A stretch of 64,000 bases of DNA from Eledone cirrhosa (Eukaryota). The position numbers and the translations under genes were made by a program. Of the stretch, positions 50,891 through 59,951 are shown in pieces (positions within the stretch are counted from its first letter, which is position 1; each line of letters starts with the position of its first letter). Below the pieces are notes generated by a model. It saw only the letters and a program-made list of their open reading frames with translations. It ran no database searches and was not told the DNA's origin. The stretch lies in the NCBI GenBank assembly GCA_964016885.1, contig OZ024748.1:682001-746000 (forward strand), read 5' to 3'.

Positions 50891-51079
50891 ATATATATAT
50901 ATCAAATTATTATTCAAATTATATATATATATATATATATATATGCAGAGGTTATATTTAATTTGTTGGGATTCAACAAGCTTAAACATTTTTATAACTG
51001 ATATAAAGCACTCAACAATTTAGTGGAGTAAATACACAATATATTAATAAATGGAAACTATATTTATAAAACCATATTT

Positions 51080-51143
51080 ATTTTATTATATATATTTCAA
51101 GGGCAACCAAGGCAAATTAAGGTGCGCTTTCATCAGATAAAAT
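51080..51143 (-). ncRNA. Type I hammerhead ribozyme motif (family H1)
   Basis: AUUUUAU CUGAUGA AAGCGCACC...GGUUGCCCUU GAAAU AUAU AUA AUAAAAU, with a perfect 7-bp stem I. Confidence 0.75.
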
Positions 51144-51213
51144 ACAGATTTGTTTTATAAATAAATATTGACATACCCGGAAAAAAAGACAACCTTAACG
51201 GTTGGAGCTTCCT

Positions 51214-51480
51214 GTCCGAAACAAATGACGTCGTGTAGGTGTCACGACAAAAAAACACGCAATCCACGCTGTAATGTGGCCGTGTAGGTAACACGGTAAA
51301 AACCTCTCAGTCCACACTGTAAACGTGGTTGGTGTTGGGAAGGGCACCCAGCCGTAGAAAACCCGCCAGACAGTCCTATACGAGCAGGACAACCAATCTT
51401 GCCTCAAGTGGGAAAACTCCCGTCCAAACCCATGCAAGCGTGGAAGATGGACGTTAAACGATGATGATGATGATGATGAT
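51214..51480 (+). mobile_element. Family B 3'-tail fragment
   Basis: Matches 33225-33485. Confidence 0.85.
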
Positions 51481-51649
51481 ACTCTCCAGTATGTACTTTG
51501 GGGTTGTACTAAGCAGAGTGTAATATCAATAAATATGGACGAGTTATCTAATTTTCATTAGGTTTATTCAGGTGTGACAAGCAATTCGCAATTGATCAGC
51601 TCAAGGTTCAATCTCTATCGATTGGGCCATATATATATATATATGCATG

Positions 51650-51813
51650 GGCATACGTCAAGACGGGCGGTCTGGAAAGTGAAAGTAATTTTTGACACTG
51701 AATTTTATTTATTTTTTTTTTTACAACAGGTCTCAATAGTGTAAGTTACGATACACACGCAATTGTATGGATTTCTTAATATATATATATGTGTGCCCGT
51801 CTTGACGTATGCC
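51650..51813. mobile_element. MITE with 19-bp TIR (inverted second copy at 52183-52350)
   Basis: GGCATACGTCAAGACGGGC...GCCCGTCTTGACGTATGCC in TA tracts. Confidence 0.75.
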
Positions 51814-51814
51814 A

Positions 51815-51848
<34 letters not shown>

Positions 51849-52345
51849 TATATATATGTGTGTATATATATATATGTGTGTGTGTATATATATATATAAT
51901 GTGTGTGTTTTTCTTTATATATTTATTTACAATCTACTGTCTCTCACTACATCATTATAAGTCAGAACTATGAGAAAACAAACCCTATACTATTACATCG
52001 TTTGAACGTCTAACTAGGAAGAACCGAATTATAATATCTAATATATATTTATATATATATAGTTATTTAAAAAGTCTACTTCTGTCCTCGACATACACAG
52101 AGCCCTTGCTACATCTAACTAATATCAATCAATGTCCAGTTTTTAGTAATCTTTCAATATACATATATATATATATATATATAGCATACGTCAAGACGGG
52201 CACACATATATATATATTAAGAAATCCATACAATTGCGTGTATATCGTAAATTACACTATCGAGACCTGTTGTAAAAAAAAACAAAAAAAACAAATACAC
52301 AGTGTCAAAAATTACTTTCATTTTCCAGACCGCCCGTCTTGACGT

Positions 52346-52416
<71 letters not shown>

Positions 52417-52456
52417 GATATTAATAAATGGAAACTATATTTATAAAACCATATTT

Positions 52457-52519
52457 ATTTCATTATACATATTTCAGGGATACCATATTAAATTATTGTA
52501 TGCCTTCATCAGACAAAAT
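52457..52519 (-). ncRNA. Type I hammerhead motif (H1), left arm of palindrome
   Basis: Exact reverse complement of 52677-52739. Confidence 0.75.
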
Positions 52520-52676
52520 ACAATATATAACAGTTTTACAAATAGCTTTGACGTACCCTTTTAAAATACAACCATTACTTTTGGAGGCTGTCTGGACTAT
52601 CCAGACAGCCTCCAAAAGTAATGGTTGTATTTTAAAAGGGTACGTCAAAGCTATTTGTAAAACTGTTATATATTGT

Positions 52677-52739
52677 ATTTTGTCTGATGAAGGCATACAA
52701 TAATTTAATATGGTATCCCTGAAATATGTATAATGAAAT
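52677..52739 (+). ncRNA. Type I hammerhead motif (H1), right arm of palindrome
   Basis: AUUUUGU CUGAUGA (52684-52690) AGG...CCU GAAAU AUGU AUA^AUGAAAU. Predicted cut after 52732. Confidence 0.75.
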
Positions 52740-52868
52740 AAATATGGTTTTATAAATATAGTTTCCATTTATTAATATCGTATATCTACTCCAAAAACTT
52801 GTCGAGTGCTTTATATCAGTTATAAAAATATTTACTTGTTGTATCCCAACAACTTTAAATAGAACTTT

Positions 52869-52912
<44 letters not shown>

Positions 52913-56511: not shown

Positions 56512-56575
56512 TTTTATTTGATGAGGACGTACTGTTGAAGATAGCTCAGTACCTCTGAAATATGTATAATAAAAT
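56512..56575 (+). ncRNA. Hammerhead motif (H2), right arm, UUGAUGA variant
   Basis: Inverted copy of 56378-56444 with C>U at the first core base. Confidence 0.65.
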
Positions 56576-56715
56576 ATACTTGATCCCACGAATGTCTATT
56601 TTTGTTAATATTTTGAATTAATATTAATAACTCCGGAAAACCTTTTTTTGTTGAGTGCTTCCAATCTATTGTAAAACTCATTCTTTGATTTATTCATTGA
56701 TCCTTGTTTAACCTT

Positions 56716-56784
<69 letters not shown>

Positions 56785-56920
56785 TGTTATGCTTTGGGAG
56801 GGTCATGTTGCCAATAAGAAACACACGCACCAGTTGCTTTCACTCCAATTTATTATAAATTAAATTTATAAATTTCCGGTTGGTTGGTTGATTCCACAAC
56901 CGGACGGTTGTTCATATATT

Positions 56921-56963
56921 GTCAAAGTTCTTTCGTCACACATTCTGTGACCTCTTCAGTGAC
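56921..56963 (-). ncRNA. Type I hammerhead motif (H3)
   Basis: Identical reverse complement of 47133-47175. Confidence 0.75.
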
Positions 56964-57305
56964 TGGGGATTCTTTTCTTTGTTTTTGTGCCTCTCCTTTG
57001 TTCTGTCCTACGCCATCTTGTTTTTCTGTGTTGGGATTCAACAAGCTTAAAAATTTATATATATATATATATATAAATGAAGTAATTCCGTCGGAAAAGT
57101 CCAGGAAAAAAGAGTGCTCTATGTAGGTAACAGAGCTTAATAGTTATGTAATAAACAACATAAGGCAATTATTTCATTTACCAGTGGTTATAATCTTTTA
57201 AGAAACCACTGGTAAATGAAATAATTGCCTTATGTTGTTTATTACATAACTATATATATATAAATTTTTAAGCTTGTTGAATCCCAACAAATTAAATATA
57301 ACCTC

Positions 57306-57337
<32 letters not shown>

Positions 57338-57342
<5 letters not shown>

Positions 57343-57482
57343 CTGAAGACGGCATATATGTGTGTTTGGTATGTATATTTAATCTTGATAGTTTGTATAA
57401 TTTTGTATAATTTTGTACATAGATCTGTTGAATATGCATGCCAATTCTAACACATATATATCCTAGAAACGATCGTTAAATA
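57338..57482 (+). ncRNA. Type I hammerhead motif with ~115-nt extended stem II
   Basis: UAUUU CUGAAGA (57343-57349) [AUAUAUGUG/CACAUAUAU; UUGGUAUGUAUAUUUAA/UUGAAUAUGCAUGCCAA] GAAAC GAUC GUU AAAUA. Confidence 0.68.
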
Positions 57483-57571
57483 ATGAACTTTTTTTGTTTA
57501 ATATAAGGAACTGTTTCATTGTTTTATTCATTATTTGTTTAATATTTTATATATATATATATATATATTAA

Positions 57572-57826
57572 TAAAAGGAATTCCAACTTTGTCTGATTTA
57601 CTCGTGTGGTGACAATCAAGTTTGCAATTTTCAACAATTTTCAGTTGAAAATTGCAAACTTGACTGTCACCACACATTATGAACCTGAAGATTGCGAAAG
57701 CATGAAAGTACTTGTTCAATTAACACTTAACATTTAATATTCTACTATACTATTTCATTCTAATACCATTATAAATTTTAAAGGATTGTAAATAAAACGA
57801 GTAAATCAAAGTTGGAATTCCTTTTA
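57572..57826. mobile_element. MITE-like fold-back element
   Basis: TAAAAGGAATTCCAACTTTG(TCTG)ATTTACTCGT versus ACGAGTAAATCAAAGTTGGAATTCCTTTTA, plus an internal hairpin at 57604-57674. Confidence 0.6.
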
Positions 57827-58179
57827 ATCATACACACCTGTGTATATTTCTCTCTCTCTCTCTATATATATATATATGAAGAGGTTATATTTAATTAACC
57901 AAATATACAAGGTGTCCCCCAAAAATGTTCTCACATTTAACTATTAGTCTTATTTCTAACTCGATAAATAATACATTTATTGTCATTTAAAGAGTGTATA
58001 TATTTTGGGGGAACACCCTATATATATATATATATAGTATAAATTATAAAATATATATATATATATGCAAACCAGATGAAACTCCAGAGTAACTAGAAAT
58101 AAAATATCTATCTATATGTATATATATATATAGATAGATAGATATTTTATTTCTAGTTACTCTGGAGTTTCATCTGCTT

Positions 58180-58243
<64 letters not shown>

Positions 58244-58368
58244 AAAGTTCTATTTAAATTGTTGGGATACAACAAGCAAATATTTTTATAACTGATATAA
58301 AGCACTCAAGTATTTGGAGTAAACATACGATATTAACAAATGGAAACTATATTTATAAAACCATATTT

Positions 58369-58431
58369 ATTTCATTATACATATTTCAAGGACACCAAGT
58401 TAAATTATGGTGTGCTTTCAACAGACAAAAT
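58369..58431 (-). ncRNA. Hammerhead motif (H1), core mutated (CUGUUGA)
   Basis: Lies within the full H1 unit at 58241-58508. Stems are retained, but core A>U. Confidence 0.6.
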
Positions 58432-59951
58432 ATAATATAGATCAGTTTTATAAATAAATATTGACATACACTTAAAAAATGCAACCATTACTGTTGGAAG
58501 CTCCCGGATATATATATATATATAAATATATTATAATTTATACTATATATATATATATAGGGTGTTCCCCCCAAATATATACACTCTTTAAATGACAATA
58601 AATGTATTATTTATCGAGTTAGAAATCAGACTAATAGTTAAATGTGAGAACATTTTTGGAGGACACCTTGTATATTTGGTTAATTTTTACATAAATATGT
58701 CTTGGATTCAGGTAGAAATTTCTGTCGTATTTTCATGGACTCTTGATTTCCAATCCCGTTGGAAATACCGGAGTTTTCTTAGTCTTTCCGACTTTCTTTT
58801 AGTATGTTTTCAACGCACCTGACCTTGAAATCCGCCTCAAATGATTCGTTCTTTTAGTTACATGTGTGTGTATGTGGTCGTAGAGGTAGCATACGGTATT
58901 TTTTCAACCTTAACTATAGCCCCATCATCAGACAAATGCGTTAGTTTCGTTCAGTCAATTTGAAATCACTTTCATTTTTAATTATATGAGTATTAGTATA
59001 GTTTCGTGTTAAATAAGGGGATTTGAATAATTTAAAATATTCTTCCCCTTCAGACATCTGAAAAACAAGTAATTTCGTTGAAAACACGGGGAAAAACGAG
59101 TAAAAAAATATGTACACTTTCCTGTAGAAGTGTTTTCATATAAAATTAAGATGTCTATACTCTACCAACATATTGAGTTCCTTTTTTAACTGTGGGCATA
59201 TATATATAGGGTGTCCCCAAAAAGTATACACCTTCAACAGCATTCTAATAAATATTGCCTGTACAGGTAATCAAAGTACGTATACACTTTTGGGGATATC
59301 CTGTATGTGTGTGTGTACATTTAAGTTTGGTGGTTCATCACTGGTCATTCCGTATAGTCAATCATGATGTAATATTAGAAAACGCACTCGACGTTATGCA
59401 ACTCATATATATATATATAATAGGAGAAAGTATGACCCCAACGGCAGAGCTCAAGCCGTTTCGACGGCTATTTCTGGACTCAGAAATAGCCGTCGAAACG
59501 GCTTGAGCTCTGCCGTTGGGGTCATAGTTTCTCCTATTACCCACTTTACTACCCCAAGTATTGAGTAGTCTGGTGCGTGATGGTCCATCTGGTTCCTTAC
59601 CACAACTACTTCGTTATATATATATATACTATCCGGGAGCTTCCAACCGACATGGTCGCATTCTGTGTGGCACCTACCTAGGACAGATGTCTACTATTGT
59701 AAGCATTGGGTTGAATAACAAATAATACTTTATTTGAAATAGATGTTTATAATTTTTATCATTGCTATATGTATTAAAATCCTAACCCAATATACTTCAG
59801 TAGTACCACTCAAATACTGGGTCCATAAAGTCAACCATATATTGGTTATATTTCTACAATACACAAGATAGTTGAAAAATGCTTTATACAATTCCTTTAT
59901 CAGTATTTTTCAATAAACAGGCATTGATGTAGGAAAGCCAGTTGTATAAAC

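Follow-up and report, generated by a model that had tools for sequence, protein, structure and literature searches.

The 64,000-nucleotide stretch of Eledone cirrhosa DNA described here (contig OZ024748.1 of assembly GCA_964016885.1, positions 682,001 to 746,000; hereafter the window) carries nine copies of two hammerhead-bearing repeats, H1 and H2. These are the 5'-truncated 3' ends, or pseudo-long terminal repeats (pLTRs), of two sister families of Hydra-clade Penelope-like elements (PLEs), and the elements are new and very abundant members of that described clade. We give a probability of about three in four to a joint reading in which the hammerhead of these truncated ends acts as a dimer and the junctions with the (TA)n target lie about 6 nt before a hairpin that positions reverse transcriptase (RT).

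The anatomy of the source elements is seen directly in coding copies. H1 is present as many near-identical copies dispersed across the 3.0-Gb genome, and at one locus (L031) a (TA)n run is followed by an inverted short end, a truncated RT and GIY-YIG frame, a long untranslated region (UTR), the H1 unit and (TA)n again. Full elements were sought in 20 loci picked for long frames, and complete H1 copies flanked by two pLTRs lie elsewhere in the genome at L065, L066 and L073. Their layout is a pLTR, an open reading frame (ORF) of about 745 aa encoding RT plus GIY-YIG (745 aa in L066, 749 aa in L065), a 3' UTR of 1.4-1.7 kb and a second pLTR, with about 3.9 kb between the repeats. As in endonuclease-bearing PLEs, a single ORF holds both domains, with YRDD and YVG motifs present, although the Pfam matches of ORF fragments to RVT_1 and GIY-YIG are both below the cut-off; the direct pLTR repeats, the inverted 5'-truncated copy and the tail at one end only are also those of such elements. 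H2 has its own ORF, 65% identical to that of H1 over 300 aa, and a further family, here called GCGC (stem III AUGCGCAU), likewise has full elements, with a protein 52% identical. A FastTree phylogeny of 280 columns, which compares unnamed relatives, joins H1 and H2 as sisters (support 0.90) with the GCGC family next (0.996). The published Hydra proteins were compared by eye. The marks given for the Hydra clade in PMC8557442 are DKT, CxCX5C, CxxC and CxH together with the lack of CX2-5CxxC, and the H1 protein has DKT, a CxCX5C linker (also found in the GCGC and H2 frames), CxxC and CxH around the catalytic E and N, a C-terminal endonuclease and no CX2-5CxxC. By eye, without alignment to canonical PLE endonucleases, the CCHH pattern has no match in the L066 endonuclease. 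A canonical hammerhead and insertion into (TA)n are further features shared with the Hydra clade. The hammerhead is part of the pLTR; junction site A, at which short ends stop, follows it by about 45-50 nt, and site B, at which long ends stop, by 130-150 nt. A descriptor with a free stem II and a free stem III hexamer has 73,872 matches in the genome, of which 20,384 have the GCGC loop, and the reversed control has none.

A different reading is that H1 and H2 are non-autonomous units of about 270 nt, resembling retrozymes or short interspersed elements (SINEs), that are copied as such. No ORF remnant is present in the window, lengths near 270 nt recur, and retrozymes have been described as PLE derivatives (10.64898/2026.07.22.740005). 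Nonetheless, the units have variable 5' ends that reach the 3' UTR and the ORF of coding copies, full-length elements exist, and no head-to-tail array of H1/H2 units is found in the window. The unit of about 270 nt in the original prediction is simply the length of the long 5'-truncated ends (266-275 nt), and the short ends measure 90-190 nt. Tandem non-coding monomers that each carry a hammerhead, as in non-LTR (non-long terminal repeat) retrozymes, are not seen. The window units are truncations of coding elements, and we rejected a retrozyme or SINE identity for them as extremely unlikely.

The junctions themselves show a simple arrangement. In copies that read through them, both 3' junction sites precede one small motif of about 25 nt, present twice, which consists of RCUC, a variable stem-loop, a UY or UA bulge, GAGY and then RCU; at each site, 2-6 nt of AU sequence also match the target. 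A junction lies no more than 14 nt 5' of this hairpin in 74 of 103 H1, 37 of 59 H2 and 35 of 44 GCGC tails, and among these hairpin-adjacent junctions 59 H1, 27 H2 and 30 GCGC cases are compatible with position -6, given the microhomology. The same position fits five of the six mapped short ends in two further families, in which one more end is unmapped. The hairpin of H2 site B was predicted before it was seen: the motif lies 7-9 nt after the long end in 19 of 20 matches, where 0-25 nt was allowed, and the ORF comes next. Single insertions tend to use one site of each kind: 48 of the 51 classable cases among 54 two-ended insertions have one short (A) and one long (B) end. The two hammerheads of a single insertion are identical in 35 of the 54 cases, and the window pair at 52464 and 52684 shares a stem II variant seen in none of the other fetched loci, so that both ends come from one source or have been homogenised.

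The hairpin is also present in distant relatives. Among 77 metagenome loci with 31-41% protein identity, 42 have enough upstream sequence, and 31 of these contain the motif within 200 nt upstream of the ORF, compared with three in antisense and 0.03 per 200 nt inside ORFs; it is also present in 13 of 24 metagenome hammerhead tails. It is double in 17 of 27 rechecked loci, with the copies 55-83 nt apart. Of the 21 metagenome loci with both repeats, seven end at a contig edge, eight end 1-8 nt before a hairpin and six end elsewhere. The first upper pair is intact in all 55 distinct hairpin instances (39 C-G, 16 U-A). Together, the three upper pairs reach a score of 135, compared with a mean of 88.5 and a maximum of 109 in shuffles that ignore kinship and use anchored counts, and they do so only with the 2-nt bulge; scored in the same way, upper-stem covariation is found in hairpins A and B separately (43 against 28.6 and 38 against 28.9). 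An A or U occupies position -6 in 51 and position -5 in 49 of 53 hairpins. Inspection by eye of published consensus sequences shows the hairpin at the start of Hydra-1_Ajap, where there are two copies, and at the ends of Hydra-2_Amil and Hydra-2_Ajap, with variant forms in Hydra-1_Crog and Hydra-1_Obim. One family (L148, L186 and L207) has a hairpin loop of more than 30 nt with an inner stem, in which the lower stem, the bulge and the offset are kept. Rfam returned nothing for five metagenome loci. No description of the hairpin was found in the literature listings searched, a scope that excluded subscription journals and Repbase entries: the words 'hairpin' and 'stem-loop' are absent from the main text of PMC8557442, and the words sought did not reveal it in the text supplements of PMC11167929, whose figures S1B and S2C, on the start-site fold of the PLE named PAc, may bear on novelty.

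From these comparisons the hairpin likely positions reverse transcription. For a single purified PLE, PAc, PMC11167929 describes nicking and extension of both target strands by the protein, with a tail defined by two internal start sites. A plausible scenario is that the endonuclease, with its CxCX5C linker, would nick both strands of (TA)n, that the protein, probably as a dimer, would bind hairpins A and B on uncleaved RNA, and that each nicked strand would prime complementary DNA about 6 nt 5' of one hairpin through a few AU pairs, with early termination giving rise to the fold-back 3' ends of the window. Any cleavage by the hammerhead would take place in a dimer or with protein assistance, in a separate step that would not set the junctions. 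We rate as somewhat better than an even bet the specific proposal that the clade-wide duplicated hairpin acts as a ruler, by which a dimer would bind both copies and each of its halves would prime one (TA)n strand about 6 nt 5' by pairing over 2-6 nt of AU sequence. In addition, stem III, being palindromic, might keep a pair of pLTR templates joined while both strands are primed.

The hairpin could alternatively serve in translation or promoter control, or in recognition by the endonuclease at the DNA level, with nearby AU patches placing the junctions. Such AU patches lie ahead of every hairpin copy, hairpin B is only 34-93 nt before the ORF start, and the lower stem is nearly invariant, like a site read by its sequence. 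Against this, hairpin A has no start codon behind it and yet has a junction at the same offset, and the 9-nt AU run of stem III is never a 3' junction; moreover, the loop varies from 8 to 19 nt and the upper stem covaries, which favours a single-stranded fold. We therefore regard another role as unlikely and retain the hairpin as the probable positioning signal.

The original prediction had instead suggested a possible link between catalysis and targeting through the AU-rich stem III; in such a model, cleaved RNA with a terminal or exposed (AU)n would anneal to nicked (TA)n and guide insertion. No AU run near the ends is longer than that of stem III (9 nt). Among the 5' joins of H1 into (TA)n, stem III is the most frequent single site, in 16 of 53 distinct loci among the matches listed, and this join has no counterpart in the GCGC family (0 of 29 among the matches listed); of the stem III 5' joins that were fetched, 12 of 14 are true joins and two are slippage expansions. 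The 3' junctions contradict the link. Exact genome counts give no (TA)n 3' join at stem III, 2,157 intact sequences and 1,914 joins 45 nt further on, and the latter show that patterns ending in TA are detectable. The first (TA)4 lies at +30-69 or +120-169 in 95 of 107 H1, 53 of 59 H2 and 45 of 48 GCGC copies, pooled from random, query-picked and motif-picked loci, against a background of 8.7%; the GCGC-loop family thus has (TA)n at the same offsets as the families with an AU stem. An AU stem III is found in none of the 24 metagenome hammerheads and none of the six in the Hydra table of PMC8557442, in which all six families prefer (TA)n; Naiads, as described there, prefer (TA)n without a canonical hammerhead, and the microsatellite determinant proposed in that paper is the endonuclease linker. 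In PMC11167929, hammerhead mutants of purified PAc insert normally. The 5' joins at stem III are rare (29 exact matches to one pattern, of which 10 were inspected) and fit microhomology repair. An origin of the 5' ends from cleaved RNA was considered and rejected: stem III letters persist in the H1 joins, and no such join is found in the GCGC family (0 of 29), which favours microhomology. Three GCGC loci join within 3 nt past the cleavage site, with no excess over other AU patches (five at +9). Microhomology at truncation is the best reading of the stem III 5' joins, and guidance of insertion by stem III is very unlikely.

The ribozyme is a real type I hammerhead, with a CUGANGA/GAAA/NUH core and stems I-III, that has been under selection in the source elements, and its pairing is kept through sequence change, as originally predicted. 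From 101 sites, 67 copies were found by their flanks alone using ungapped, G/C-aware anchors; 24 of the remainder lack the upstream flank and the others are references, duplicates or near locus edges. Over 11 core positions in these copies 10 of 737 cells are changed, compared with 451 of 6,231 in the flanks. The downstream flank (66 of 2,546 changed, 2.6%) was the search anchor, so that the upstream flank (385 of 3,685, 10.4%) and the free N7 position within the core, changed in 21 of the 67 copies, are the fairer contrasts. A core mutating as fast as its flanks, named beforehand as an outcome that would speak against the hammerhead, is therefore not what is found. In 33 chosen copies 96.2% of cells pair, a value reached in none of 500 shuffles, and slid registers give at most 57.9%. 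On a flank-only tree of 86 haplotypes, a count of two-sided pairing events, standing in for R-scape, gives 12, where 300 permutations have a mean of 1.9 and a maximum of 7, and 53 of 60 internal-branch changes keep the pair. Stem II accounts for ten of the two-sided events and stem III for the other two; stem I has none. The proposed alternation of stem I sequences does keep pairing, yet only through G-U wobbles, and the way in which copies were harvested partly presupposes stem I pairing. Across the three sister families, 83 of 86 haplotypes keep a C at position four of stem II (alignment A1, column 21) that faces C or U and is unpaired; it is a candidate tertiary contact or protein site.

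Dimeric folding, which the original prediction thought possible through a self-complementary AU loop, is likely on the pattern of change in stem III, which stays palindromic, as a dimer needs, across the sister families (AUAU, AUGU, ACGU, GCGC). Among the first 100 matches listed, the hexamer is UGCGCA in 36, UAUAUA in 29, UAUGUA in 28, UACGUA in two, UGUGCA in one and non-palindromic in four, such that 96 are self-complementary with G-U allowed. Pairing of the innermost stem III positions requires a second copy, and complementarity is kept in all eight of their internal-branch changes. In each of the three families, closure of the 2-bp stem III by itself is disfavoured by about 3 kcal/mol, and the stem III self-duplexes range from -2.2 to -10.5 kcal/mol. 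A dimer model for PLEs with a palindromic loop 3 and low dimer activity is described in PMC4209133, with which a review passage agrees; the model is plausible and already known. A hammerhead acting as a protein-assisted monomer, with its palindrome a by-product or relic, seems doubtful: the hammerhead of PAc cleaves solely with protein (PMC11167929), distant Hydra relatives have stems of 3-4 bp that can close alone, and co-folding gave no dimer, but the closing cost, the 96 self-complementary hexamers and the eight changes that keep between-copy pairing all point the other way, and a dimer through the palindromic stem III is preferred. At L239 and L243 the AU stem III has slipped to 7-9 repeats and the multi-copy subfamilies keep exactly 9 nt, which suggests a length constraint in active elements.

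Several observations weigh against the joint reading. In the protein, the RWK motif keeps RW with a third residue of R, T/I or G (RWR, RWT or RWG, substituted in L066), and the elements are about 3.9 kb compared with the typical, but not diagnostic, size of less than 3 kb for Hydra, a difference due to the long 3' UTR. The dimer must contend with a AUAUGUAU self-duplex of just -2.2 kcal/mol, with a co-fold of two H1 copies that pairs elsewhere and forms no stem III dimer, and with a mere two two-sided events in stem III. As for the hairpin, it was not found in 11 of 42 metagenome upstream regions and 11 of 24 hammerhead tails, some of them at contig ends, and six of the 14 informative metagenome repeat ends lie away from it. 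The junction counts stand on eight distinct sites in five families and not on independent copies. Finally, another (TA)n-inserted family with two ends, recognised in the window by the non-palindromic stem III AGAACU, has no RCUC hairpin behind its short end.

All nine hammerheads listed in the original prediction are present in the window, seven with an intact core and two with a broken one, and all nine read GAAAUAUAUAUA or GAAAUAUGUAUA in stem III with AUA at the cleavage site, as had been reported. A strict type I descriptor finds six cores, against a mean of 0.02 in 50 shuffles; five belong to H1/H2, one looks like chance, and the remaining listed copies need a looser motif. The H1 3' ends comprise a short end at 18382..18545 (-), with its hammerhead at 18440-18489 and (TA)n beginning 50 nt past the cleavage site; a long end at 50942..51207 (-), 79% identical to full-length L066, with its hammerhead at 51087-51136, (TA)n at +142 and hairpin A (ACUC...GAGU GCU) at 51007..51029 (-); and a long end at 58235..58502 (-), with its hammerhead at 58376-58424, in which A6 is changed to U (CUGUUGA, at 58424), and hairpin A at 58301-58320. 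Two further H1 ends constitute a single fold-back insertion with one short and one long end. The inverted short end is at 52408..52596 (-) (hammerhead 52464-52512, (TA)n at +48, 98% to L066), and the direct long end is at 52600..52874 (+) (hammerhead 52684-52732, predicted cleavage after 52732, (TA)n at +139, 97% to L066), with hairpin A at 52788..52810 (+), 7 nt 3' of the short junction site.

The H2 ends include a long end at 55849..56097 (+) (hammerhead 55928-55977, hairpin A 56040-56067, (TA)n at +149), an inverted short end at 56330..56498 (-) (hammerhead 56386-56436, (TA)n at +52) and a direct long end at 56489..56723 (+) (hammerhead 56518-56568, hairpin A 56630-56659, (TA)n at +150), the last with a core changed at C3 to U (UUGAUGA). 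An H2-related short end with a short stem II lies at 54949..55039 (-); its hammerhead (54993-55031) has one mismatch in stem I, and an additional upstream piece at 55225-55370 is split off by another repeat. The pairs originally given as 52457/52677 and 56378/56512 are inverted, on opposite strands, so that a tandem double hammerhead on one transcript is impossible, and a tandem-dimer reading of these pairs was rejected. Rfam gives no match to H1/H2 in the window at gathering or at E<=1. Over the whole window it gives nothing at gathering and, at E<=1, only sub-threshold microRNA matches on fold-backs and a weak Hammerhead_1 match at 56218-56262. This match is a third, compact hammerhead family at 56224..56255 (+), which has the stem III ACAUUGU (not AU-only) and serves as an internal control, scoring 29.1 bits against a gathering score of 34. 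It lies between two (TA)n runs, adjoins an H2 insertion and is the sole copy in all fetched DNA.

Other (TA)n-inserted families are also found. One, with stem III ACCACUGGU, is present at 18157-18372, 57053-57265 and 41488-41576, with a hammerhead at 18273..18321 (+) and hairpin A at 18206-18233 (-) and 57113-57136 (-); its stem III can close as a monomer, and it has the same hairpin and junction offset. The AGAACU family, at 56781-57031 and 47065-47329 with hammerheads at 56925-56959 (-) and 47137-47171 (+), ends at about +150 and +210 and is probably another PLE clade. More inverted pairs or fold-backs with (TA)n bounds lie at 51629-51839/52157-52370, 57893-58066/58514-58685, 58019-58231, 57604-57675, 59418-59539 and 25134-25238, and the hammerhead descriptors found nothing in them. 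We also note an abundant family, similar to long interspersed nuclear elements, that ends in (GAT)n beside (TA)n (9853-11173, 31895-33585, 45100-46660, 16537-17976, 34271-34855 and 37116-37798); H1/H2 copies are frequent in its tails. A 1.5-kb direct repeat with 97% identity is present at 3114-4592 and 6358-7832, with an extra partial copy at 7859-8132.

The palindromic stem III in PLE pLTRs and the (TA)n targeting of the Hydra clade are both already in print, and the main interest lies in the hairpin next to the junctions, which is a strong and testable lead. Penelope-like RTs are the sister group of telomerase RT, and if the ruler is real, a telomerase-related RT would gain a defined and portable template-positioning signal; a single rule would then cover both 3' ends, the tail and the fold-backs with one short and one long end. 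The presence of a 25-nt duplicated motif at a fixed offset from both start sites, in relatives with no more than 31-39% protein identity, makes the choice of start site directly testable, and a portable hairpin could steer the RT-endonuclease to copy a chosen RNA. The sister families likewise provide a natural series of palindromes for tests of the dimer model. How PLE RTs pick internal starts and form tails and inverted ends is a question raised by the authors of PMC8557442 and PMC11167929.

Among known systems, the elements most resemble the Hydra clade as described by Craig et al. 2021 (PMC8557442), with which they share the C-terminal GIY-YIG, DKT, CxCX5C, CxxC and CxH, a hammerhead near the 3' end, the (TA)n preference, the pLTR with an inverted truncated copy and the tail at one end only. 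They differ in the length of H1 (about 3.9 kb, with a 3' UTR of 1.4-1.7 kb), in a tail of about 90-95 nt where 30-40 bp is quoted there for other PLEs, in a 2-bp stem III with a palindromic 4-nt loop in place of the 4-bp stems of its table, and in the presence of at least 73,872 motifs in this one genome. The Penelope-like hammerheads of PMC4209133 share the long stem II, the short palindromic stem III, the dimer model, high within-genome diversity and compensatory changes, whereas here the palindrome can be traced through AUAU, AUGU, ACGU and GCGC, and an unpaired C is kept at stem II position four. The non-LTR retrozymes of Li et al. 2026 (10.64898/2026.07.22.740005) are likewise short type I hammerhead units related to PLE pLTRs, but the window has no tandem monomer arrays and its copies are truncated coding elements. 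The PAc Poseidon element studied in vitro by Frangieh et al. 2024 (PMC11167929) is similar in having two internal RT starts that define the tail, in using both target strands and in forming junctions independently of hammerhead cleavage. However, PAc starts in one AC-rich stem loop of the ORF without target homology. In the present elements both sites are instead found 5' of the ORF; a separate copy of the conserved hairpin follows each, and 2-6 nt there are identical to the AU sequence of (TA)n.

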